33,652 nt of DNA, from NCBI GenBank assembly GCA_963771075.1, contig CAVYSE010000022.1:1-33652 (forward strand). The letters are read 5' to 3'. The position numbers and the translations under genes are program-made. Source of the stretch: a candidate division FCPU426 bacterium (GTDB taxonomy: Bacteria > Oederibacteriota > Muellerivitia > Muellerivitales > Muellerivitaceae). Numbering within the stretch: the first letter of the stretch is position 1; each line of letters begins with the position of its first letter. Below are positions 12,358-33,652 of the stretch, in pieces. The notes below the pieces were generated by a model. It was not told the origin of the DNA. It did no database searches and saw nothing but the letters and a program-made list of their open reading frames with translations.

Positions 12358-12514
12358 TTCTGAAAAGCTAGTCGTGGACTATCTCCCCCCTTTGAAAAAG
12401 GGGGGCAGGGGGGTATTAGCCCTTGCTAACACGGACTAAAAGGCTAACTCCCCCCTGTTCCCCCTCTTTCAGAGGGGGATACAGGCTGTAATCCGCAGAT
12501 TCGCCAAAGTCGAG
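12343..12514. mobile_element. 172-bp MITE with 11-bp terminal inverted repeats and a 7-bp target-site duplication
   Basis: TIR CTCGACTTTGG (12343-12353) / CCAAAGTCGAG (12504-12514); flanking direct repeat ACAGTTA (12336-12342 and 12515-12521); internal CCCCCCTTT..AAAGGGGGG REP-like hairpins. Confidence 0.8.
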
Positions 12515-19081: not shown

Positions 19082-19317
19082 AGACTATAACAATAACTAA
19101 TTTCACCACAGGCCGCCTTTGGCGGCCACATGCCGACCTTCCATAAACCCATTAAGGAGGTCGGTATAGTCTAGCTATCTTTGGCCCTGAGGGCCAAAGA
19201 GACAGAGGCACAGAGAAAAACCTTTCTAAATTTAAGGAATCTTAAACCAATTGTCCGGGGTTACTCTGTGTCTCCGTGTCTCTGTGGTAAAAATTGGGTT
19301 TTGTTAGAGATTCTAAG
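19082..19317. mobile_element. MITE-like palindromic repeat, copy 2
   Basis: Near-identical to 2861-3161 without its second internal module; imperfect terminal inverted repeats. Confidence 0.75.
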
Positions 19318-19337: not shown

Positions 19338-20081
19338 ATGAGCATTGAATCAACCAAAGGTAAATGGGCCCTCGTCACCGGCGCGAGCCGGGGGGTGGGC
19401 AAACAGGTCGCGATGGCTTTGGCGAAGCTGGGCTGCCATGTGGCGCTTCACAGCCGGGAAGCCAGCCATACCGACGCGATTGCCAAGGAAGCCAAGGCGC
19501 TGGGGGTCCAGGTCATCCAGGTTTCGGGCGAATTGTCCGACCAGGCCCAAGTGGACGCCCTGCTGGAGTCGGCCCTGAAAGGGGCGGGCCGGATCGACAT
19601 GGTGTTCAATAACGCGGCGGTCATGACGCCCTGGCGGCAGAACCCCTGGGAGACCACGGCGGATGATTTCCGAAAGAGTTTCGAGGTCAACGTCATCAGC
19701 CTCGCGAGGATCTGCGGCAAATTGGCGCCGCCCATGCTGGAACGCAAATGGGGAAGGATCGTCAATGTCACTTCCGGCATCATGCATACGCCTGAGCTGA
19801 CCGCTTACGCCGTATCCAAGGCGGCGGTGGACAAGTTCGTGCGTGACTTCGTCCCCACCTTGAAGGGAACGGGGGTCATGATGAACCTGTTGGATCCGGG
19901 CTGGCTTCGCACGGACCTCGGCGGGCCCAACGCCCCCAATACGGTGGAAAGCTGTATCCCGGGGGCCATTGTCCCGGCCCTGTTGGACGACGGGATCAGC
20001 GGCCGTTTTTTCCGCGCCCAGGACTACGCAGGGTTAAGCCTGGCGGATGCGCTTAAAAAGGCGGCCGAAGTAAAGAACTAA
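19338..20081 (+). CDS. Short-chain dehydrogenase/reductase
   Basis: TGASRGVG, NNAA, YAVSK, PGW.RTD. Confidence 0.92.
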   Translation: MSIESTKGKWALVTGASRGVGKQVAMALAKLGCHVALHSREASHTDAIAKEAKALGVQVIQVSGELSDQAQVDALLESALKGAGRIDMVFNNAAVMTPWRQNPWETTADDFRKSFEVNVISLARICGKLAPPMLERKWGRIVNVTSGIMHTPELTAYAVSKAAVDKFVRDFVPTLKGTGVMMNLLDPGWLRTDLGGPNAPNTVESCIPGAIVPALLDDGISGRFFRAQDYAGLSLADALKKAAEVKN

Positions 20082-20107
20082 CAAGGGATTATTAAAAGAA
20101 TTTTGAG

Positions 20108-20137
20108 GGGCGGAAGAAATTCCGCCCTTTTTTATTT
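20108..20137 (+). terminator. Intrinsic terminator after SDR (identical to 14497-14526)
   Basis: GGGCGGAA-GAAA-TTCCGCCC-TTTTTT. Confidence 0.85.
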
Positions 20138-20180
20138 GGGGGAACCAGTTTTAAAGGGTTTAAAATAAACGCAATCATTC

Positions 20181-20202
20181 GGTTCGAGTCCAACCCGGGG
20201 AT
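20181..20202 (+). repeat. Site A3: tRNA T-arm/acceptor-like putative attachment site
   Basis: GGTTCGAGTCCAACCCGGGGA. Confidence 0.65.
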
Positions 20203-20222
20203 GCATTCAAATAGGAGTTACT

Positions 20223-20630
20223 GTGAAGAAAAAGACACTAAAAACATTTCTTGTCTCGCTAACAATTAAACATTCAAGGAAAAGCCTAAGCGAACTTTCT
20301 GCCGCAATAAAACTACCGTATTCAAAAGGTTCTTGTAATAAGGGTGACTTAATCCATGGGAATAAAAAAGCTAAGAATACCGTTTGGATTTATTACGTCA
20401 ACACAAAGAAAATTAAGACATTGGATAAGTGTATCGAAAAACTAATTTTTTCGTTTAATCATTCATCTCTTAAGGCGTCTAGGTCGGTCCCAAGAGATTG
20501 GGATGCCCATTTAGACGTTGCCGTGTTATATAAAACTTATACTTGTTCTTTAGTAATTCAGGCAAAACAATTGAAGTGGTTCTCGATTAGGAACATTGGC
20601 CTGTCAATAAGCTGTTATCCGACATCTTAA
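20223..20630 (+). CDS. AT-rich hypothetical protein, DUF4279-like (cassette 3)
   Basis: AGGAG RBS and GTG start; VSLTI...KGD...W...LSISCY pattern resembles DUF4279. Confidence 0.65.
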   Translation: MKKKTLKTFLVSLTIKHSRKSLSELSAAIKLPYSKGSCNKGDLIHGNKKAKNTVWIYYVNTKKIKTLDKCIEKLIFSFNHSSLKASRSVPRDWDAHLDVAVLYKTYTCSLVIQAKQLKWFSIRNIGLSISCYPTS

Positions 20631-20653
20631 GCTCGAATTACCTGAAATTTGAT

Positions 20654-20680
20654 GGTTCGAAAATCGTTTAATCCGGGGAG
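20654..20680 (+). repeat. Site B3: inter-cassette repeat; GGGGAG serves as RBS for the ORF at 20689
   Basis: GGTTCGAAAATCGTTTAATCCGGGGAG. Confidence 0.8.
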
Positions 20681-20688
20681 TCTTAAAA

Positions 20689-21069
20689 ATGGAAGAAATT
20701 GTGGCAATTAAAGTAACCCACGGAAAAGGAAAAAAGGATTTTTTCCTAACTTGGGGAAGAACTTTTGATCCGGTTGAACACGCACAACTTTTACATGCAG
20801 TTGGTAAAAATCTAAAAAAATATGGAATTAAAAATATCAAAAAGTTACTTCTTCTAGATAGTTTGAAGGAAGTGTTTAGGGAGAGATATTTTTTTGAGCA
20901 CTATTTCTTAATGGCGCAAAAGAAAATTCCCTTTGGCAAGGGCTATAACCGTTGGCGAAAAGCGATGAATAAAAAGATAACGCAAGGTTATGAAATTTAT
21001 AAGATCAGTGATTACCGTCCAATAAATAAAACCTTATCCAGGGAAATAACCTTAAAACAACGAAATTGA
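20689..21069 (+). CDS. AT-rich basic hypothetical protein (cassette 4)
   Basis: 126-aa ORF with ATG 8 nt after GGGGAG; FLTWGR.FDPV motif. Confidence 0.7.
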   Translation: MEEIVAIKVTHGKGKKDFFLTWGRTFDPVEHAQLLHAVGKNLKKYGIKNIKKLLLLDSLKEVFRERYFFEHYFLMAQKKIPFGKGYNRWRKAMNKKITQGYEIYKISDYRPINKTLSREITLKQRN

Positions 21070-21070
21070 T

Positions 21071-21085
21071 GGTTCGAAAAACGTT
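21071..21085 (+). repeat. Site B4: left half of site B closing the array
   Basis: (AAATTGAT)GGTTCGAAAAACGTT; the right half has diverged. Confidence 0.6.
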
Positions 21086-21141
21086 CGGAATGGTGAACCA
21101 CTCTTCTTCGTAAACCGGCCCTTTTTCAGCCCTTTTTCGTA

Positions 21142-21170
21142 TTGCCTTCAAAAACCCCCTGGCCTATACT
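21142..21170 (+). promoter_or_regulatory. Sigma70-type promoter of the rpsF operon
   Basis: TTGCCT-N17-TATACT. Confidence 0.65.
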
Positions 21171-21237
21171 TCACCTCCCCTGGAAGCAGTTTTCAGGGTA
21201 TTAAGTTCCCGCCATCGGGCCCCAAACCCAACGCAGG

Positions 21238-21308
21238 AACCCTGCTCCCTTCCATTAATAAGGAGAGGGAGCTACCCCCGCACCTTGCGGGGAATCCATA
21301 GGGAGGTA
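21238..21308 (+). promoter_or_regulatory. S6:S18 ribosomal-protein leader RNA
   Basis: CCCT-GCTCCC...GGGAGC...AATCC-AT-AGGGAGGT: a stem pairing into the SD, with an unpaired CC just upstream of rpsF. Confidence 0.6.
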
Positions 21309-21312
21309 GTGC

Positions 21313-21825
21313 ATGAGCCAGCTTAAGTACGACGTCATTTACATCCTGGACCCCAACTCATCCCCGGATGAGATCGCGGCCGTTTCCACGAAAGTGGAAC
21401 AGATCGTGGCCGAATCCAAAGGGACCGTCCTCAAGAAGGAAGAGTGGGGCAAACGCCGCTTGGCCTACATGGTGCAAAAGCACCGCGACGGCCACTACGT
21501 TTTCTTCCACGTCCAGGTTTCCACCGAAGCGGTGGCCGAGTTGAACCGTAACTTGCGCCTCCTCGAAAAAGTCATCAAATTCATGATCGTGCGCGACACC
21601 ATCAGCCACCTGAAACCGCGTCCCAAGCCCATTCGCAAGGCACCGGAGGAAGGCGCCTCGGTTCGTCCCCACGCCCCCACCCGGCATTCGGGCCCCTCGG
21701 CACCGGCCTCGTCCGGCCCGTCCGCCCCGGTCGCTTCCACCCCGGTCCCCGCGGCTCCGGCCCCGGCCCCTGCACCTGTTGAAACCGTTGTACCCACGGC
21801 CCCGGTCGCTCCGGCCGGAGAATAA
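21313..21825 (+). CDS. rpsF: 30S ribosomal protein S6 with Pro/Ala-rich C-terminal extension
   Basis: YDVIYILDP, WGKRRLAY, G.Y, ELNRNLRL..VIKFMIVR. Confidence 0.93.
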   Translation: MSQLKYDVIYILDPNSSPDEIAAVSTKVEQIVAESKGTVLKKEEWGKRRLAYMVQKHRDGHYVFFHVQVSTEAVAELNRNLRLLEKVIKFMIVRDTISHLKPRPKPIRKAPEEGASVRPHAPTRHSGPSAPASSGPSAPVASTPVPAAPAPAPAPVETVVPTAPVAPAGE

Positions 21826-21853
21826 CCCTTACCGTTTTGATTAGGGGGTTGCC

Positions 21854-22285
21854 ATGCCTGACCTGAACAAAGTGTTTCTCATGGGGCGCCTGACCAAGGA
21901 CCCCGAGCTTCGCTATACCGCCGGGGGAGCCGCCGTGGCCAACCTGCGCGTCGCGATCAACCGGGTCTATTCGCTCCAATCGGGGGAGAAAAAAGAGGAA
22001 GTCTGTTACGTCACCGTCGTGGTTTGGCGCAAGACCGCCGAGGCCGTCGGTGAGTACCTGAAAAAGGGTGACCCCCTTTTCGTGGAAGGCTACCTGCAGA
22101 GCCGTTCCTGGGAAACCGAAGACAAGCAAAAACGAAGCACGATGGAAGTGGTCGCCGACCGCATCCAGTTCCTGAACCGTGGAAAAAGCGGAAGCGGCGA
22201 GTCCCCCGCCCCGTCGGAGGAAGAAGGGACGCCGCAAGGCGGGCCCGCGGCCTCCACCGGCACCGAGGAAGACATTCCCTTTTAA
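21854..22285 (+). CDS. ssb: Single-stranded DNA-binding protein
   Basis: [20 protein letters not shown]-terminal EDIPF. Confidence 0.96.
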
Positions 22286-22347
22286 CGGCTGAGACGGGCC
22301 GCTTGGCCCCGAACCACCCATTACCGCAACTTTTAAGGAGATTGAAA

Positions 22348-22662
22348 ATGGAAGAGAGAAAAGAAAGACCCCACCACTCCGAGGGAGGACGCCGCGAAGG
22401 CGGTCCCGGAGGAGGACACCGTGAGGGAGGCGGCCCCGGAGGCCGTTTCCGCCGCCCGCGCCGCAAATCCTGCCGGTTCTGCCAGGACCGCGTGGTCGCG
22501 ATCGACTATAAGGACTACAACCGCATCCGCACCTTCGTTTCCGACCGGGGCAAGATCGTGCCCAGCCGCATGACCGGCACTTGCGCCAGCCACCAACGGG
22601 AACTCACACAGGCCATCAAGCGGGCCCGCAACATCGCCCTCCTGCCTTTCGCAACCGCCTAG
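22348..22662 (+). CDS. rpsR: 30S ribosomal protein S18 (Zn-binding type)
   Basis: [41 protein letters not shown]. Confidence 0.95.
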
Positions 22663-22682
22663 GGGCGGAAAGGGAGCCGTTC

Positions 22683-23465
22683 GTGGATTGGGTGCTCGCC
22701 TTTTTGTTTTTGATGCTGCTTTTCGGGGCCATGACGACCCTCAGCGGGTTGGCGATCCTGTTCGCTTTGCTGAGGGGGGCCAGGCCCAACACGGCGGTCC
22801 TGGCCGGTTCCCTCGCTTGCGCATTGTTCTTCCTGTCCCTCTTCGCGGTTCTTTTGAACGGGAAGATGGGTTGGAAGGATATCCAAACCACGCTTCGAAC
22901 TTCCTCCGAACAAAGCGTCCAGGCCCAAATCGCGGCTTGGAAGGCCCAGGGCGTCTCCCAGGATAAGTTGGATGAATTCAAGGACGAGGCGGACCGGTAC
23001 CTGCCCTCCGTGCTGCGGGTTTACCCGTCCCTATTCGCCTTGGCCAGCGCCTGGCTCGGCTTGTTTTCCTACTACCTGATCCCGTTTTTTTTCCGCCGGT
23101 TCATCACCCGGGTCCCCCGACCCATGCCTTTCCGGCAGTGGATCATTCCCGAACCGCTCATCTTTTGCTTCATCGCCGGGGCCCTCCTGAACGTCGGGTC
23201 GAAATGGGTCGAAATGCCCGGGTTTGAATGGCTGGGGATCCTCGGCAATAACCTGATCGTTTTTTTCGGGGGAGTTTACATCATGGGCGGTTTCAGCATC
23301 ATTTCCTACTACCTCCAGAAATGGAACGTTCCCATCCCCTTTCGGTTCCCGATCTATATTTTCCTGGCCGTTTACTTTTTCGTGCCGCTTTTTTGCCTAG
23401 GCCTATTGGACGTTTGGATGGACCTGCGTAAGATCAAAACACCACCCCTGGAGAGAACCGTATGA
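22683..23465 (+). CDS. DUF2232/YybS-like membrane protein
   Basis: Multi-TM protein between rpsR and rplI; PFRQW..P and LGLLDVWMDLRK motifs. Confidence 0.8.
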   Translation: MDWVLAFLFLMLLFGAMTTLSGLAILFALLRGARPNTAVLAGSLACALFFLSLFAVLLNGKMGWKDIQTTLRTSSEQSVQAQIAAWKAQGVSQDKLDEFKDEADRYLPSVLRVYPSLFALASAWLGLFSYYLIPFFFRRFITRVPRPMPFRQWIIPEPLIFCFIAGALLNVGSKWVEMPGFEWLGILGNNLIVFFGGVYIMGGFSIISYYLQKWNVPIPFRFPIYIFLAVYFFVPLFCLGLLDVWMDLRKIKTPPLERTV

Positions 23466-23905
23466 AAATTCTTTTGACCCAAGACGTTCCCAAGATCGGC
23501 AAGAAGGGAGAGGTACTGGAGGCCAAGGAAGGGTACGCCCGCAATTTCCTCATACCCAACGGCCTGGCGGTAGCGGCCACCGAGAGCGCCATGCGGGAAA
23601 TCGCGGCCCAGAAAAAGGCCCTGGAACGCAAGAAGGAAAAAGAAAAGGAAGCCGCCCAGGCCTTAGGGGCCAAATTGAAGGGCTACACCATCACGCTCCG
23701 CCACAAGGCGGGGGATGAAGGCAAGCTGTTCGGTTCCATCACCGCCGCCGAGATCTCCGAGGCCCTGAAGGCCAAGGGGTTCGACATCGACAAGAAACAG
23801 ATCGTGCTCGACGACCATATCCGCCTCGTCGGCCACCACGACGTCACGGTCAAGCTTCACCCCGAGGTCACGGCCACCGTGCCGGTGGATGTGATGAAGG
23901 CTTAA
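23462..23905 (+). CDS. rplI: 50S ribosomal protein L9
   Basis: MKILLTQDV..IGKKGEV...GYARNFLIP; GKLFGSIT. Confidence 0.97.
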   Translation: MKILLTQDVPKIGKKGEVLEAKEGYARNFLIPNGLAVAATESAMREIAAQKKALERKKEKEKEAAQALGAKLKGYTITLRHKAGDEGKLFGSITAAEISEALKAKGFDIDKKQIVLDDHIRLVGHHDVTVKLHPEVTATVPVDVMKA

Positions 23906-23985
23906 TTTTTCCAGCGGATGGACTGTTGGAAATTCCACTAATCCCCGTTGATTCGACCCATCCACGTCTTAATGGTAGGTAGTTA

Positions 23986-24097
23986 ATGGTCAAACCCCTG
24001 GCTGACTTCGGCACTCCCCTGGAAATACTTGATTGGTTCGGATATGTACCTGGCCACCATTCGGGAGATGGAACAGTACCTATACGGGGCCGCATAG
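23986..24097 (+). pseudogene. 3' remnant of an EcoAI/EcoEI-type type I restriction subunit (hsdR C-terminus)
   Basis: Translates as VKPLADFGTPLEILDWFG/frameshift/YLATIREMEQYLYGAA*, recognisable as the EcoEI_R_C tail pattern P...FGTP.EI...FGG...Y...I.E.E..LY. Confidence 0.55.
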
Positions 24098-24163
24098 GCA
24101 AACCAACATCCAACGCAAAGCCGCAAAGGCGCTAAAAAAGGTCACCCATAGGGTTTAAAGACA

Positions 24164-24660
24164 AATTTTATAACGCCGTTATAAAATTGGAAGAATAGGC
24201 GGGGTGAATTAGTAGTAATACTACTAATTCAAATAAGGGAATTTGGCAGGTAGGGTGGCATGGGGGGTGAATTAGAGGAATTTCCTCTAATTCAATCAAG
24301 GGAATTCGGTTTAAAACCCGGGTTAAGGTTTTAATTGGCCGCAGTGCGGCCAATTGGCGGGTTTGTTGGATGGTTAGCTGGGTGAATTGATCGCAGTGCG
24401 ATCAATTCAAATAAGGGAATTTGGCATAAACCCCAGGAAGGGGGGTGAATTAGCGGCCTGGCCGCTAATTCAAATATGGGAAATTGGCAGCAAGGCGGGT
24501 ATCGGGGGTTGAATTGATACGATTCGTATCAATTCAGGTAACGAAAAATAAGGGAAATCTTAATGTTTTGCAGATTCTGCAAAATTTCAATATTCCCCTT
24601 ATATTTTGTCCCCCCATTCCGGGCCTTTGGAAATGGGTTTTATAACGCCGTTATAAAATT
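24164..24660. repeat. Array of nine variable-arm perfect palindromes with semi-conserved flanks
   Basis: Palindromes at 24164-88, 24206-30, 24269-93, 24333-55, 24384-408, 24447-71, 24511-35, 24566-84 and 24638-58. Confidence 0.9.
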
Positions 24661-24668
24661 CTGCCTTG

Positions 24669-24740
24669 TTTTTCTCTGTGTCTCTGTCCTCCTTAGCCCT
24701 TTGGACTAAGGGTATCAGGGGACTATACCGACCTCATTAA
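24669..24740 (-). repeat. Partial inverted, diverged copy of the 2861/19082 repeat
   Basis: Reverse complement TTAATGAGGTCGGTATAGTCC...CTAAGGAGGACAGAGACACAGAGAAAAA aligns with 2931-2991. Confidence 0.65.
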
Positions 24741-24782
24741 ATACTTAATTCATAACTAAACTCCTTCTTGAAATTTAACAAC

Positions 24783-24824
24783 TGTGGTAAAAAAAATACC
24801 ACATGTGGTAATATTTATACCACG
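24783..24824. promoter_or_regulatory. Tandem operator for the XRE regulator
   Basis: Two abutting TGTGGTA-N7-TACCAC(A/G) inverted repeats directly upstream of the RBS. Confidence 0.65.
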
Positions 24825-24844
24825 CCAAATCATGGAGGATGAAC

Positions 24845-25225
24845 ATGAGTTTCGGTGATTACATAAATAATTTACGGATACAGCAGAAAAAGACTTTGAG
24901 GCAATTCTGCATGGAGAACAGCCTTGATCCGAGTAATTGGAGCAAGGTGGAAAGGGATGTGAATCCACCCCCTAAAGATGAAGCTGTCTTGGGGCAATGG
25001 GCCAAGTATTTTGGCATCAAACCCAAGACCGATGAATGGAATCAATTCATGGATGAGGCCAGGATAGCCAGGGGAGAAATACCCCGGGACATCATGAATG
25101 ACGAAAAAGCCGTAGCCCTTTTGCCGGCATTTTTTAGGACAGTTCGGGGTGCTGAAATTGGCGAAGCCGAGATTAAAAAACTGATCGAGAAGATCAGAGA
25201 GGCCAATACCCCGGATGAACGGTGA
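24845..25225 (+). CDS. XRE-family HTH regulator
   Basis: FGDYINNLR...TLRQFC....DPSNWSKVER...PP; GGAGG RBS. Confidence 0.85.
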   Translation: MSFGDYINNLRIQQKKTLRQFCMENSLDPSNWSKVERDVNPPPKDEAVLGQWAKYFGIKPKTDEWNQFMDEARIARGEIPRDIMNDEKAVALLPAFFRTVRGAEIGEAEIKKLIEKIREANTPDER

Positions 25226-25847
25226 ACTCCATTATCTTTATCTCCCCGAAATCCACGCTCGGGTCGAGGCTTTTCGTGCCGGTCTGGATCATGACCTTCA
25301 GGCATTGCCCATTGATGTCACCTTTATCGCGGAGATAAATTTGAGGCTTAAACCCATCCCGCTCAAGGGTCTTTGGGAGGATTTGAATATCGATGCCGCC
25401 CTAACCCCTGATTTAAAGGGGTTTTATGTCGATGAAAAGTCCTATGAGTGGGTTCTTGAACGGGTTGAAAACCACCATTGGTTGGAAAATCGGTTGAGGT
25501 TCTCCGTGGCCCATGAAATAGGCCACTATATTTTGCATGGTGATGTTCTCAAAGGGTTACAGTTCAATAATATTCATGAATATTTGGCTTGGAGGAACGC
25601 CAAACGAACCGGAGCTTCCCCTGAGTACCAGGCGGATGAGTTCGCGGGACGGCTCCTGGTGCCAAAGCCTTTGTTGTTCTCGGAATATGACCATATCACC
25701 AAGACGGTCGCACAAGAACACGGCGATTGGCGGAGGATTGAAGGAACGCGGGAAAAAGTCGCGAGAAAATTAGCCCCGCGATTCGGCGTCAACTTTCAAG
25801 TGATCGAAACAAGACTGGATAGGGAAGGGATTTGGCCTACCGAATAA
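25215..25847 (+). CDS. ImmA/IrrE-family Zn metallopeptidase
   Basis: R.RFSVAHEIGHYILH, EYQADEFAGRLLVP, LA.RFGV. Confidence 0.9.
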   Translation: MNGELHYLYLPEIHARVEAFRAGLDHDLQALPIDVTFIAEINLRLKPIPLKGLWEDLNIDAALTPDLKGFYVDEKSYEWVLERVENHHWLENRLRFSVAHEIGHYILHGDVLKGLQFNNIHEYLAWRNAKRTGASPEYQADEFAGRLLVPKPLLFSEYDHITKTVAQEHGDWRRIEGTREKVARKLAPRFGVNFQVIETRLDREGIWPTE

Positions 25848-25988
25848 GAGGAATGTGGACAACTGTGAATAGTGTGCATAACTTTTCTTTCTAAATAAAA
25901 ATAAAAAATAATTTTTAAAAAATTCTATCGTGACTTTGGAAATGACGGATAGAATGCGCACCTAACGAATTTTTTGCCTGGAGTTTAC

Positions 25989-27384
25989 ATGGAAGTTGCC
26001 CGTAAAAGTTTTCCCCTCTCTCCCTTCGCCAACAGCCAATCCGAGTTCCGCGTTCCGCCCCAAGACCTGGAAGCCGAGCAGTCGGTCCTGGGCGCCATGA
26101 TGCTTTCCTCCGACGCCATCCGGGCGGTGATCCCCGTCTGCCACGAGGAGGACTTTTACCGGGAGGCGCACCGGAAACTTTACCACGCCATCGTGGTGCT
26201 GGACGACCGCAAGGAACCGGTGGACATCATCACCCTCACCAACGAACTCAAACGCATGGGGGATTTCGACACCGTCGGGGGAGTCACGGCCCTGACCACA
26301 TTGGTCGACCGGGTGCCCACCGCCGCCAACGCCGAATATTACGCCCAGATCGTCAAGGAAAAGTCCTCCGCCCGCAAGCTAATCACCGCCGCCACCCAGG
26401 TGGTCGCCGACGCCTATTCGGACGCCATGCCCATCAAGGAACTGTTGGACGACGCGGAACACCGGATCTTCGAGGCCACCGAGCTTCGTGAAAGCAAGGA
26501 CTTCGACAGCATCAAGGACCTGATCGGCAATTCCTTCGAGTACGTCAACACCCTCACCGACCAGCAGCAGCACATCACGGGCGTGCCGACCGGTTTTTAC
26601 GACCTGGACGACCTGACGGCGGGTTTCCAGCCCGCCGAAATGATCGTCATCGGGGCCCGGCCCTCGGTCGGCAAGACCTCCCTGGCCCTGAACATCGCCC
26701 AGCACGCCTGCATGGGCACGAACCAGTTGAAGAAGAAGATTCCCGGTGGGGTTTTTCTCCATCGAAATGACGGCCAAGCAATTGGCCCTCCGCCTGCTTT
26801 GTTCGGTGGCCCGAATCGACCTGAAAAAGGCCCGGTCGGGTTACCTGAGCGACCAGGAACGGGCTCGGTTGGTCGGGGTCACGGGCCAGTTTTATGAGGC
26901 CAAGCTCTTCATCGACGATACTTCCTCCATGTCGGTGCTGGACCTCAAGGCCAAGGCCCGCCGTTTGAAGCGGGAACAAGGCATCGGCATCCTGATCATC
27001 GACTACCTCCAGCTCATCCAGGCGGGCATCCGCGACGGCAACCGCGAGCAGGAAATCGCCTACATCTCCCGCAATTTGAAGGCGCTGGCCAAGGACCTGG
27101 ATATCCCGGTGGTGGTCCTGTCCCAGCTTTCCCGGCCGGTGAAGGGCGCGGAGGAAAAAAGACCGGTCTTGTCGGATCTTCGCGAGTCGGGCGCCATCGA
27201 GCAGGACGCCGACGTGGTCATGTTCATCCACCGGGAATCGGCCGGGCAGGACGGCGAAAAACCCATGTTCAAGTACGAATTGGTCCTCGCCAAACAGCGT
27301 AACGGCCCCACCGACAATATCGACGTGGTCTTCCGCAACCAATACACCACCTTCGAATCGGCATCGAAAGTTTCCGAACGATGA
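25989..27384 (+). CDS. dnaB: Replicative DNA helicase (one +1 frameshift near 26743, probably a read error)
   Basis: PPQDLEAEQSVLG, Walker A GARPSVGKT, FFSIEM, IDYLQL, LSQLSR, DLRESGAIEQDAD, KQRNGP. Confidence 0.95.
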
Positions 27385-28502
27385 GGTCCAAAACCCCGGC
27401 CTGGGCCGAAATATCCCTCACCGCCCTCAAGAACAATTTCAAGGCCCTCTCCAAGATCGCCCGGGGTTCCCATGTCCTGCCGGTGGTGAAGGCCAACGCC
27501 TACGGCCATGGGGCGGTGCCGGTTTCCCAGGCGCTCCTCCAAGCCGGGGCCAAAAGGCTGGCCGTGGCCACGGTGCAGGAAGGGGCGGAACTGCGGGCTT
27601 TCGGGATCGATTGCCCTGTCCTGGTCTTGACCCCCACCCTGAAAGAGGAAATCCCCGACCTCCTGGAAAACGGGCTTATCCCCCAGGTCAGTTCCTACGG
27701 AGGAGCCTTGGAACTGGCCCGGATCGCCAAGAAAATGAAAACCGGCCCGGTTCCCATTCACGTCAAGCTCGATACCGGCATGGGCCGGGTGGGGGTGAAG
27801 ATTCACCGGATTTTGGATGAAATAAAAGCCATCCGAAACATCCCCGAATTGAGGGTCGAAGCCCTCTATACCCACTTGGCCACCGCCGATTGGACCGACC
27901 CCAAATACGCCTGGAAACAGATTACCCAGTTCAACCAGGCGTTGGAACACCTCCGCCAAAAAGAGGGTTTTTTCCCCATGACCCACGTGGCCAACAGCGC
28001 CGCGCTCTTGACCTATTTTCCCCAGTCCGCGGGCACCTGGGTGCGGCCCGGCATCGCCCTTTACGGCATCTATCCCAATCCGGCCTTTAAGAACAAGGTC
28101 GACTTAGCCCCGGTCATGCAGGTCAAGGCCAAGATCATCCATTTAAAGAAGATCGAAAGGGGCCAATCGGTCAGTTACGGCCGTACCTATACCGCCCGAA
28201 AGAGCGTGGTGGTGGCGACCGTGCCTTTGGGCTATGCTGATGGGGTGCACCGGAACCTTTCCAACAAGGCCCCATTCCTGATGGGCGGCCGGAAGGTGCC
28301 CCAAATCGGCACCGTTTGCATGGACATGCTCATGCTGGACGCCACGAAAGCGCGGGGGGCCAAGGTGGGGGATGAGGTTGTCTTTTTCGGCCGGCAGGGC
28401 CAGGCCGTAATCGGGGTGGAAGAACAGGCGGCCCTGGCTGGGACCATTTCCTATGAGCTGCTTTGCGCGGTAGGTGAAAGGGTGTCACGCCTTTACGTTT
28501 AG
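27381..28502 (+). CDS. alr: Alanine racemase
   Basis: VVKANAYGHG PLP lysine, KLDTGMGRVG, HVANSA, GYADG, CMDM, TISYE. Confidence 0.96.
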   Translation: MRSKTPAWAEISLTALKNNFKALSKIARGSHVLPVVKANAYGHGAVPVSQALLQAGAKRLAVATVQEGAELRAFGIDCPVLVLTPTLKEEIPDLLENGLIPQVSSYGGALELARIAKKMKTGPVPIHVKLDTGMGRVGVKIHRILDEIKAIRNIPELRVEALYTHLATADWTDPKYAWKQITQFNQALEHLRQKEGFFPMTHVANSAALLTYFPQSAGTWVRPGIALYGIYPNPAFKNKVDLAPVMQVKAKIIHLKKIERGQSVSYGRTYTARKSVVVATVPLGYADGVHRNLSNKAPFLMGGRKVPQIGTVCMDMLMLDATKARGAKVGDEVVFFGRQGQAVIGVEEQAALAGTISYELLCAVGERVSRLYV

Positions 28503-30145: not shown

Positions 30146-30785
30146 ATGGTTCCCGTCATCCAACTTAAAAAAGTCTCCAAGCGATTCGGCAAGTTCGTGG
30201 TCTTGAACGAAATGGACCTGGAGGTTTTCCCCGGGGAGACCCTGGTCATCATCGGGCGCTCCGGGGTGGGGAAGAGCACCATCCTGAAGCACATCTCGGG
30301 GCTGATGACCCCGATTCGGGGGAAGTGTGGGTGGAAGGCCAGAAAATTGAACGCATGGCCGAAAACGAGCTCAACGAAATGCGGAAGAAAATGGGAGTGG
30401 TGTTCCAGGGAGCGGCCCTGTTCGATTCATTGACCGTGTTCGAGAACGTGGCTTTCCGCCTATTGCGGAATTAGAGATGCCCCGCGAAAAGGCCATGGAA
30501 GTTTGCCGCCAAAAACTGGAACTGGTGGGCCTCCAGGACGAGGTGGCCTTCCGCAAACCTTCCCAACTCTCGGGCGGCATGCGCAAGCGGGTGGGGCTGG
30601 CCCGCGCGATCGCCGTCGACCCGGAGATCATCCTTTACGATGAACCCACTTCCGGGTTGGACCCGGTAGACTTCCGAAGCCATCAACGAGTTGATCTTGG
30701 ACATGCAACGGAAGCTCTCCGTAACCTCCATCGTGGTTACCCACGATATGCAAAGCGCCTACAAGGTGGCGAACCGGATAGCCAT
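30146..30785 (+). CDS. mlaF: MlaF-family ABC ATPase (frameshifted by read errors, cut off by the fold-back)
   Basis: [37 protein letters not shown]. Confidence 0.85.
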
Positions 30786-33652
30786 GATCAACTCGTTGAT
30801 GGCTTCGGAAGTCACCGGGTCCAACCCGGAAGTGGGTTCATCGTAAAGGATGATCTCCGGGTCGACGGCGATCGCGCGGGCCAGCCCCACCCGCTTGCGC
30901 ATGCCGCCCGAGAGTTGGGAAGGTTTGCGGAAGGCCACCTCGTCCTGGAGGCCCACCAGTTCCAGTTTTTGGCGGCAAACTTCCATGGCCTTTTCGCGGG
31001 GCATCTCGAAATCCCGCAATAGGCGGAAAGCCACATTTCTCGAACACGGTCAATGAATCGAACAGGGCCGGGGCTGGAACACCACTCCCAGTTTCTTCCG
31101 CATTTCGTTGAGCTCGTTTTGGGCCGTGGGGAGAACTTTCTGGCCTTCCACCCAGGCTAACCCGAATCGGGGGTCATCAGCCCCAGATGTGCTTCAGGAT
31201 GGTGCTCTTCCCCACCCCGGAGCGCCCGATGATGACCAGGGTCTCCCCCGGGGAAAACCTCCAGGTCCATTTCGTTCAAGACCACGAACTTGCCGAATCG
31301 CTTGGAGACTTTTTTTAAGTTGGATGACGGGAACCATGGAATTCCTATATTTTCAGGGTGGTCAAGATGGCCGTGAGGAAGTAGTCCGACACCAAAATGG
31401 ACATGAAGGAATAGACCTGCGCGTTGGTCGTGGCGCGGCCCACGCCTTCCGCCCCGTTGGTCGTGTTGAATCCCTGCCGGCATGAAACCGCCGCGATGAT
31501 ACTGCCGAAAACCAGCGCCTTCACCAATCCTCCGACGATATCGGATGTTTCCACGGCCTGTTGGGTGGCGTCGATATAGACGGTGGAGGAAGTGAACTTG
31601 AGGGTACAAACAAAGAGGCCGCCCGTTCCAACCGGTGAAATAGGCAAAGATGGTCAGCAGGGGCATCATGAAGGAAAAGGCGAGGAACCGCGGTACCGCC
31701 AGGTATTTCAACCGGGTTGGCCGCCAGGTTGTGAGTGACCTGCATGAGCTGCATAAATTTCGCCGCCACCGCCGAACCCAGAGCCCAGACCCATGGGCGG
31801 TCAGGACCGGCCCCAGTTCGCGCACAAGGGAAAGGGAGACCACCGCCCCCAAGAATTGGGAAATTCCCTTCATCTTGGTTTCCAGGGTGTAGCCCGATTG
31901 CAGCGCCGCCCCCTACCGGTGAAAAAGGCGGTGGTCATGGCCACAGGGGATCGAATCGAGACCCACCCGAACCATTTGTTGGAGGATCAAGCGCAGGTCG
32001 TAGGGAAATTTCAACATCCAGAAATTGATACGGAGGGTGAGATGAAGACAATGTTCCCATCTCCTCGATAAAGTAGATGGTCTGGGCGCAATTTCAGCGT
32101 ATGAAAAGCCTCAAATAATGAAAGGCACTTTTTAATCATTGTCTTTTTCAGGGGTTGTCGTCTAAAAAGGCCTGAGGGCAGGGAAAGATTAACATAAACA
32201 CTTAAGAAAGGGACGGCCAACGCGGATCCCTTACTTGTTCGAAGAAACCTGTCGGCTTCTCCCGGGTAGGTTCGGCCGTCCCAAAATGCCGGGGGCCGGA
32301 AGATCAAGGGCTGGAATTCGGGGGGGCCATGCGGCCGATCTGGTACAGGGGTACATCCACTTCCAACAGACCGGGGCCGGGGAAGCGATGACGCGCGGTC
32401 CGAATAGAAGCTAAACCTGGTGCATCCAAGGAGAAGGAATCGTGATCTCAGTTCCGTGCAGAGATGTTTCCCGCCGAATTGGTTTCCATCAAAGGTCCGG
32501 AAATGTTCTTTTTGACCACGCAGGCCAAAGGACGTTCTTCCAATCCGAATCAGCAAAAAAGGTCCGGCAACTTGATCCTTACGTTGTTTTTGAGCGTGAG
32601 TAGTTATAGGTGCTGAAGATCCAACGGGACTGGGGGTTGCGAAACCTCCGGGCGGATCGCGACGCTTCTGAGTCCTCCCCGAAATCGCCCACCACCTCCA
32701 CCTGGGGCTCATAGGGGAAAGTCTTCCCCGACCAGCTTTTGCGCTGGCGCTTGTATTCTTTTTGGGCCAGGTTCGGATTCCCTGGGCCACGTTTCGGATT
32801 CGAGATCGGGGGCAGATCCATTTTCGGCGGCGCGAAGGACCGGCTCCGCGAGTGAATGGCCTCGGCGACATAAAGGCCAGGATCGGGACGGAACAACATC
32901 GATATAGGTTGGTTATGATTTTTTTTTCAATGGACAACTCAACTAGGGTCCAATAACGAGTGGAACTAAACGTAAAGGCGTGACACCCTTTCACCTACCG
33001 CGCAAAGCAGTTCGTAGGAAATGGTCCCGGCCAGGGCCGCCCTCTTCTTCCACCCCGATTACGGCCTCGCCCTGCCGGGGCCAAAAAAGACAACCTCATC
33101 CCCCACCTTGGCCCCCCGCGCTTTCGTGGCGTCCAGCATGAGCATGTCCCATGCAAACGGTGCCGATTGGGCGCTCTTCCGGCCGCCCATCAGGAATGGG
33201 GCCTTGTTGGAAAGGTTCCGGTGCACCCCATCAGCATAGCCCAAAGGCACGGTCGCCACCACCACGCTCTTTCGGGCGGTATAGGTACGGCCGTAACTGA
33301 CCGATTCCCCACGATCTTCTTTAAATGGATGATCTTGGCCTTGACCTGCATGACCGGGGCTAAGTCAACCTTGTTCTTAAAGGCCGGATTCGGATGGGGG
33401 TCCCATAAAGGGCGATGCCGGGCCGCACCCAGGTGCCGGCGGAGGGGCTGAAATTAGTAAGAGCGCGGCGCTGTTGCACCAGCGCTGGGTAGTGGGAAGA
33501 AACCCTCTTTTTGGCGGAGGTGTTCCAACGCCTGGTTGAACTCAGGGTAATCTGTTTCCAGGCGTATTTAGGGGTGGGTCCAATCGGCGGTGGCCAAGTG
33601 GGTATAGAGGGCTTGGAGCCTGAGACTGGGGATGCTTCGGATGGCTTTTATT
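30786..33652 (-). other. Error-rich inverted copy of ~27821-30696 (fold-back chimera)
   Basis: 30786 GATCAACTCGTTGATGGCTTCGGAAG is the reverse complement of 30671-30696; the mirror continues through mlaF, mlaE, DUF3298 and alr with many indels. Confidence 0.92.

Follow-up and report, generated by a model that had tools for sequence, protein, structure and literature searches.

Binding sites inside the gene of the protein that reads them are known from parS within spo0J of B. subtilis and from the lambda O gene with its ori iterons; these have a single fixed specificity each, with no diversifying family and no mixed arrays elsewhere. Clustered intergenic palindromes are known as REP/BIME elements, whose stems are constant within a family, and regular units as CRISPR arrays. 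It has long been asked how a DNA-binding protein and its target can evolve in step and still fit each other, a question examined to date with a handful of pairs such as ParB/Noc. ParB–parS and Noc–NBS combine a ParB_N domain and an HTH with a palindromic site, and in Caulobacter ParB, as described by Jalal et al. (2020, PMC7383237), R173 bonds guanine and Gln at this position reads adenine. Staphylococcal oriT mimics are presented in PMC8136818 as cis copies of sites for a diversifying trans-acting DNA-binding protein, SmpO, of which there are several subtypes and in which a single residue can switch specificity. The aba element of BstA, in the account of Owen et al. (2021, PMC8585504), is a DNA element within its own locus that is cognate-specific and works as DNA, in trans when multicopy. 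A survey of orphan proteins with the ParB-CTPase fold (PMC12704722) describes genes outside parAB that are fused to lineage-specific domains and tied to mobile DNA; its main text contains neither "palindrom" nor "transmembrane".

The array analysed here lies at 24164–24660 of a contig of 33,652 nt (the window, contig C22 of genome G000; relatives are numbered G001, G002, etc.), and its units match a site inside the genes of a ParB-like family. It works like parS/NBS clusters and oriT mimics, and lies outside ParABS, with its ParA and fixed site, and outside CRISPR and REP. The family has in common with ParB and Noc the fold, the palindromic site, the Arg–G preference at the R173 position and, as in the account of Jalal et al. 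(PMC7383237), a second helix behind the HTH that also appears to track the site. Unlike parS, with its fixed even consensus of 16 bp, the family site is 15 bp long, odd-centred and hypervariable (76 distinct arms among the gene sites), sits at a fixed codon and has a one-sided A-rich flank; at most 13 family matches per genome occur beside a separate canonical parAB/parS, and the arrays mix specificities. Unlike in ParABS, no neighbour or partner gene, parA included, recurs among the ORFs listed in 20 loci (all-against-all BLAST). Compared with the oriT mimics, the specificities number in the dozens, as many as nine sites keep helical phase and an HTH takes the place of an RHH; no relaxase, nic site or conjugation/mobilisation gene recurs near family genes or arrays (98 array neighbours scanned). 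BstA–aba illustrates how the array might act as a sponge or antidote, although aba is not reported as a palindrome in the text of PMC8585504 that we consulted and heterotypic arrays occur only in the ParB-like case. In contrast to REP/BIME and CRISPR, the stems vary and the flanks are constant, the units keep helical phase, the motif also belongs to protein-coding DNA, and there is no RAYT or cas link among the Y1 loci and window proteins scanned. New is a heterotypic, phased intergenic array that turns over, and a literature search (mostly outside subscription journals, supplements excluded) yielded no description of such a system; one paper retrieved, PMC13371061, concerns an mRNA structure, going by the part consulted, and has no bearing on the array.

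The array is real and beyond chance: a scan of 24100–24700 identified nine odd-centred perfect palindromes with arms of at least 9 bp, while 1000 dinucleotide shuffles of the same segment gave a mean of 0.006 and a maximum of one. Five of the units are indeed perfect palindromes, as the first-pass annotation of this DNA had described them, but their length is 27 bp (13+1+13, TGAATT-N7-n-N7'-AATTCA) and not 25 bp. These are, all on the plus strand, site 2 (24205–24247, centre 24218, palindrome 24205–24231, arm AGTAGTA, with the AAATAAGGG flank 13 nt from the centre), site 3 (24268–24310, centre 24281, palindrome 24268–24294, arm AGAGGAA), site 5 (24383–24425, centre 24396, palindrome 24383–24409, arm GATCGCA), site 6 (24446–24488, centre 24459, palindrome 24446–24472, arm AGCGGCC) and site 7 (24510–24536, centre 24523, arm GATACGA). 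Four further sites have no assigned strand. Site 1 (24164–24188, centre 24176) has the core arm TATAACG and a flank of the AAAATTGGAAGAATAG type; site 9 (24638–24660, centre 24648) is identical to it and forms the 23-bp direct repeat 24166/24638. Site 4 (24333–24355, centre 24344) has the arm GGCCGCA, and site 8 (24566–24584, centre 24575, arm TTGCAGA) lies within a longer imperfect inverted repeat (24541–24609). The sixth unit, the short unit and the bracketing repeat noticed earlier thus stand where they had been placed.

Support from sequencing data, which the earlier reading presupposed, comes from contigs of four public runs that reproduce most of the stretch with zero substitutions: 23700–24236 (from a run that may be the window's own source sample), 24344–24494, 24463–24696 and 24361–24526 (one gap in the last); positions 24237–24343 are uncovered among the 30 pieces listed of 59. 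Heptamer-like short repeats bracket the array, of the CGCAAAG type on the left (24113–24137) and of the CTCTGTG type on the right (24673–24697). A promoter and terminator scan gave matches at chance level only.

A series of regular units whose flanks are constant and whose middles vary, beside a regulator pair, resembles an inside-out CRISPR-like array of hairpin RNAs, as had been suggested from the letters alone, or a set of operators of the downstream XRE. We regard either as barely credible. A one-base loop makes a poor RNA hairpin; an Rfam scan of 20000–28000 gave five weak matches, none near the gathering score; and no cas gene was found among the 33 window proteins scanned. The variable parts are self-complementary, and they are swapped in place with no addition at an end, contrary to an inside-out CRISPR. 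Co-variation of the cores with a DNA-reading helix and spacing at the 10.5-bp B-DNA period indicate duplex DNA and speak against processed hairpin RNAs. The XRE, for its part, separates from the array in relatives: G008 has an XRE homolog without an array, and G001 an array without this XRE adjoining, so the XRE was rejected as the cognate protein.

The array had at first been taken for a feature of this locus, but its unit recurs elsewhere in G000 in singles and clusters and is present in 11 of 30 genomes of the same bacterial family and in none of 30 outside it (in-gene copies included). In G000, the centre of a perfect palindrome with 7-bp arms falls exactly 13 nt ahead of AAATAAGGG in 19 cases, compared with none at eight other offsets. 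Species-representative genomes yielded 28 pattern matches, three of them palindromic and 25 due to chance; four matches in viral contigs were not palindromic, and 38 candidate viral stretches contained no ParB-like relative.

Dispersal as singles and clusters would also be expected if a Y1 (RAYT-like) transposase had spread repeats of the REP/BIME type. G000 has 20 Y1_Tnp matches, and the ends of the 320-aa Y1 elements lie within 1.5 kb of five of ten ParB-like genes, against 16% of random places. Nevertheless, we consider this origin very improbable: the stems of the array are hypervariable; none of the 20 Y1 genes is flanked by these palindromes, or by a constant stem, among the entries listed, so that Y1 transposases were rejected as RAYT partners; and the nearest site to a Y1 gene, among the sites listed, is 4.1 kb off. 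Moreover, the motif has linked genes, the ParB-like genes located elsewhere in the genome, and does not represent the scattered REP/BIME family without a linked gene that the first-pass annotation had set against its own reading.

Other repeats were noticed in G000. About 17 Y1 genes (317–326 aa; C6:1580, C2:48927, C3:235646, C21:77113 and others) lie between short terminal inverted repeats, which is unusual for the IS200 type. A second dispersed family of odd palindromes has variable arms between GTCC and GGAC (C1:54672, C3:98688, C15:5884 and C22:19178, the last at 19178–19200 of the window). Paired CCCCC-N-GGGGG hairpins about 75 bp apart, a conventional REP-like family, occur at 12386–12478 of the window and in about ten other places, and five more odd palindromes, differently flanked, are clustered at C12:14359–14628.

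In four loci of the ParB-like family the unit lies inside ORFs of 570–740 aa that have a ParB N-terminal domain and an HTH. Together with the AAATAAGGG flank it reads I-x-x-m-x-x-N-S-N-K-G-I-W, the central base being the middle of the central codon; the 15-bp palindrome occupies one fixed codon position about 60 bp behind the recognition-helix codons. Fold tests gave PF02195, an HMM match to Spo0J (1vz0, E 2e-15) and a Foldseek match to Noc/ParB (E 3e-8). By these assignments the family is one of lineage-specific, expanded, orphan ParB/Noc-like proteins with a predicted ParB_N domain and HTH, often with a second ParB module or a membrane segment. It has matches in 18 of 31 genomes, with a maximum of 13 in G000, and comprises 61 close homologs and 272 representatives (best 150 listed). 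A hydropathy rule places a hydrophobic segment beyond residue 300 in 27 of the 61 homologs. The proteins may use CTP; Box II (GE-R-R) is kept, Box I has changed from NP-x-QPR to P-x-NPG and Box III from ENLQR to DNDVR. The canonical parAB genes of G000 are separate from the family genes, and what we take to be canonical parS occurs twice on C27, away from the family sites. PADLOC gave no match among five ParB-like proteins tested, and the ESM Atlas contained generic ParB clusters only.

The palindrome is well kept within the genes. Zero or one arm mismatch was seen in 44 of 51 aligned gene copies, and four of the other seven are degenerate second modules; 68 of 76 protein sequences allow a perfect palindrome, compared with 16.2 (maximum 26) in column shuffles. 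The flank codons are fixed (ATT 31/33, TCA 26/26, AAG 37/37, GGA 31/32, ATT 27/27 and 30/31), whereas Ile elsewhere in these genes is encoded by ATC (24/25, 29/32 and 30/32), and a wider window for codon fixation, chosen beforehand, gave only 0.76 vs. 0.65 (a weaker p of 0.015). AT-rich codons in the flank as opposed to C-ending codons elsewhere indicate that the constraint acts on DNA. Some genes have multiplied their own site in frame with a 42-bp period, and the copies differ at arm positions 6–7. A single ORF in the database strings together gene fragments that bear different sites, which shows a possible route to mixed arrays.

We analysed co-variation of residues and site bases in 75 homologs of less than 90% identity. 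The top links joined residue −31 to base 1, −20 to base 4, −21 to base 2, +17 to bases 7 and 6, and −20 and −17 to base 3. All fall in the HTH or the next DNA-facing helix of the DNA-binding domain and are absent from the codons nearest to the site, which argues against mere linkage. With one exception, the pairings follow known chemistry: Arg at −31 goes with G (51/51); at −21, Arg goes with G (17/17), Asp, Glu or Asn with C (5/5), and Leu, Pro, Val or Ile with T (28/29); at −20, Pro goes with A (16/17) and Glu with C (11/11). The exception is Lys at −21, which pairs with T in 14 of 17 cases and is unexplained by a simple code. In the alignment with Spo0J, residue −21 falls on the Arg of G-K-x-R, the position of R173 in Caulobacter ParB; the alignment of +17 with G201/R204 of ParB has an uncertain register.

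Leave-one-out prediction in homologs of less than 70% identity gave 65/74, 65/75, 45/68 and 67/71 correct bases, against 54, 46, 16 and 52 when the commonest base was taken and 44, 38, 20 and 46 when the nearest homolog was used; residue −19 predicts base 5 less well than the commonest base (49 vs. 54 of 75). Changes of core bases on the tree are almost as frequent as when the labels are shuffled. When 36 disjoint pairs are compared in 1295 tests, the link of −20 with base 4 alone comes close to significance (p 4e-5); neither −31 nor −21 survives correction by itself, and the non-contact columns 70, 19, 30 and 85 rank in the top ten. As the site bases track DNA-reading residues and not phylogeny, each ParB-like protein probably binds the palindrome in its own gene. 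The proposal of a library of operator-like sites or decoys is supported, and the array units have the motif of the in-gene site.

Alignment shows that the array of G001 is orthologous to that of the window, with the scaffold kept and the cores changed. In the four aligned units we counted 11 two-sided compensated changes (two pairs at site 3 and three at site 6 among them) and one one-sided change, in agreement with the earlier claim that more than point mutation keeps the arms perfect; other G001 copies provide one-mismatch intermediates. Arms differ at 11 of 26 positions and the scaffold at 31 of 184 (p 0.007). Template switching, described in PMC5941160 as perfecting inverted repeats in bacteria, may contribute, but alone it would be expected to run at about the neutral rate and not to outpace the scaffold; faster change in the cores than in the scaffold therefore implies selection for new addresses or copying from genes.

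Array cores and gene cores have a common positional profile. Fifteen of 47 array cores equal a gene site, and exact left-arm matches are in modest excess (10 vs. 5.3 in a column shuffle, p 0.014). The arm of site 2 recurs at C24:143208 of G000 and as the left arm within a G021 ParB-like gene, the arm of site 5 in a G021 array and the core of site 1 in a G018 cluster, and true gene-fragment arrays exist. In G000, which is 97% complete, a single one of the nine sites, site 4, comes within one base of the site in a resident gene, that of the C1 and C7 paralogs; its difference at position 6 is also seen among tandem sites within single genes. Most sites are therefore without a known partner in this genome, and in seven relatives the type-A sites listed seldom equal resident gene sites (by inspection).

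These matches with the genes might mean that the units are donor cassettes, from which ParB-like genes diversify by gene conversion of the five palindrome-coded residues. On either side of the core the units agree with the gene, and they read in its frame; one array unit and a gene site have even a mismatch in common (L022 vs. L161). However, the units lack the helix codons that must change along with the site, many have in-frame stops in the flank, and helical phase is not needed by donors. In addition, a modelled family member (pLDDT 83) has the residues coded by the palindrome where the post-HTH helix ends and in a low-confidence loop. Such a role thus appears remote.

The centres of the window sites are spaced by 42, 63, 63, 52, 63, 64, 52 and 73 bp, or 4, 6, 6, 5, 6, 6, 5 and 7 helical turns. 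In 25 clusters, 72 of 80 spacings in the range of 20–200 bp are within 1.5 bp of n × 10.5, with a best period of 10.55; for the 38 distinct distances p is 2e-8, related arrays being non-independent draws. Clusters ahead of small winged-HTH genes are more weakly phased (R 0.54, n 17). The layout of the array appears to serve proteins that sit on duplex DNA along one helical face.

Phasing also bears on the view that the array is neutral debris, that is, fragments of broken ParB-like genes without present function whose palindromes are perfect by template switching only, a process documented for bacterial inverted repeats (PMC5941160). Arrays do hold gene-derived flanks and true gene fragments, a resident partner is absent for most sites, and the spacings of 42, 63 and 84 bp preserve the reading frame as well and might derive from in-gene repeats. 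Out-of-frame spacings (52, 73, 94, 104, 115 and 136 bp) are phased too, however, so that the phase is more than inheritance from coding repeats; the cores diverge faster than the scaffold, where homogenisation alone would give a roughly neutral rate; and in the window the scaffold has outlasted both hsdR and hsdM. We therefore find debris improbable.

The history of the locus can be followed in the relatives. The array does not belong to a defence-type island, as first assumed, but to a 2-kb insertion in the operon rpsF-ssb-rpsR-DUF2232-rplI-dnaB-alr, which holds a remnant of hsdR, the array and a CapH/CapP-like pair of XRE and IrrE genes. The left border of this insertion hot spot is rplI (ribosomal protein L9; 23462–23905, plus strand; Pfam PF01281/PF03948). 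It is followed by the frameshifted 3' remnant of hsdR, a type I restriction subunit (23983–24097, plus strand; tblastn identities of 90% and 86% to the G001 HsdR C-terminus). To the right of the array are two GTGGTA-N8-TACCAC inverted repeats (24784–24823, no strand assigned), separate from the array and probably the operator of the XRE, and the present neighbours, the genes of XRE (HTH_19, weak CapH) and of the IrrE/ImmA peptidase (CapP-like; 24839–25847, plus strand). In G002 and G003 rplI and dnaB are adjacent with no insert; the same hot spot contains hsdR-array-hsdM in G001, and a Panacea gene with the XRE homolog and no array in G008. As the last 115 bp of hsdR are kept in the window, the array is the leftover of an hsdR-hsdM cassette and formerly sat between the two genes as in G001. 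The hsdR of G014 is 91% identical yet has no array; the restriction cassette does not require it, and a fixed part of the restriction locus was rejected. Across genomes, arrays often adjoin toxin–antitoxin, restriction or small winged-HTH genes (descriptive counts without a background control).

Several observations concern the surroundings. In G014, two unrelated tandem repeat tracts lie 3' of the hsdR homolog, where the array would be (L211). The rplI hot spot of G001 (L072:476–12771) contains type I restriction–modification, DarT-DarG and a fused XRE-IrrE gene, and this genome carries three near-identical copies, probably from co-assembled strains. In the window, dnaB (25974–27384) and an ABC ATPase gene (30146–31022) are each split across two frames, probably by assembly indels, since dnaB is intact in relatives.

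Taken together, the array is best explained as a docking platform with many addresses, composed of putative sites for homodimeric orphan ParB-like proteins that would be mostly non-resident variants; we give this reading a probability of roughly 0.78. Each ParB-like gene carries a presumed private 15-bp site with the constant AAATAAGGG flank inside its coding sequence, and the two arms would be read by a homodimer. A protein and a site located in one gene could mutate and recombine as one unit and so diversify into many private pairs. Selection for symmetric binding, together with correction by template switching and copying of gene fragments, would keep the arms perfect. Intergenic arrays may have been built from site-bearing fragments of different genes and then trimmed, and whole-turn spacing would allow several dimers of different specificity on one DNA face. 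The adjoining cassette, originally hsdR-hsdM, could then be bound by any variant that enters or resides in the cell.

The purpose of such a platform may be to recruit or titrate non-resident variants and thereby to protect or switch the adjacent cargo, in the manner of oriT mimics or of aba, which we place slightly below even odds. DNA-to-membrane tethering via membrane-anchored paralogs, to which binding on one face would be suited, seems unlikely, and some other purpose rather more unlikely still. A broader proposal, tentative and with the odds leaning against it, is an adaptive cis-element in which a phased array picks up the private sites of self-addressed ParB-like genes in circulation and keeps them current, and by which a defence or cargo cassette would sense, soak up or hitch-hike on incoming variants; the array would then be a DNA record of arms-race specificities with a simple residue-to-base code. 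If arrays are adaptive sensors or sponges, they are a new kind of element. Mixed arrays in helical phase hint at a so far undescribed level of conflict or cooperation between ParB-like genes and nearby restriction, toxin–antitoxin and regulator cassettes. At least 75 natural variants with a presumed site in the same gene constitute a matched protein–DNA set for the evolution of recognition. Because single residues predict single bases in distant homologs, the code is directly testable, and it might yield many orthogonal ParB–site pairs for locus labelling.

Related arrangements were seen in other genes. In distant family members (P0088, P0143, P0152 and P0104) the site peptide, located behind the HTH, is repeated in tandem and in frame. 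In G008, an ORF6N gene (L020:2532–2960) that adjoins an array has two perfect odd palindromes in its coding sequence, which suggests that another family may follow the self-site rule as well. Small winged-HTH genes are often preceded by array-type sites, some with outer inverted repeats of their own; at least two palindromes are found upstream in 8 of 22 such genes, a count without a background control. The family of these proteins (L088:7002–7469, L186:4635–5207, L188:4034–4501), present in 13 of 31 genomes, has an N-terminal GFLKxLFG-like amphipathic stretch, which resembles the membrane anchor of MinD.
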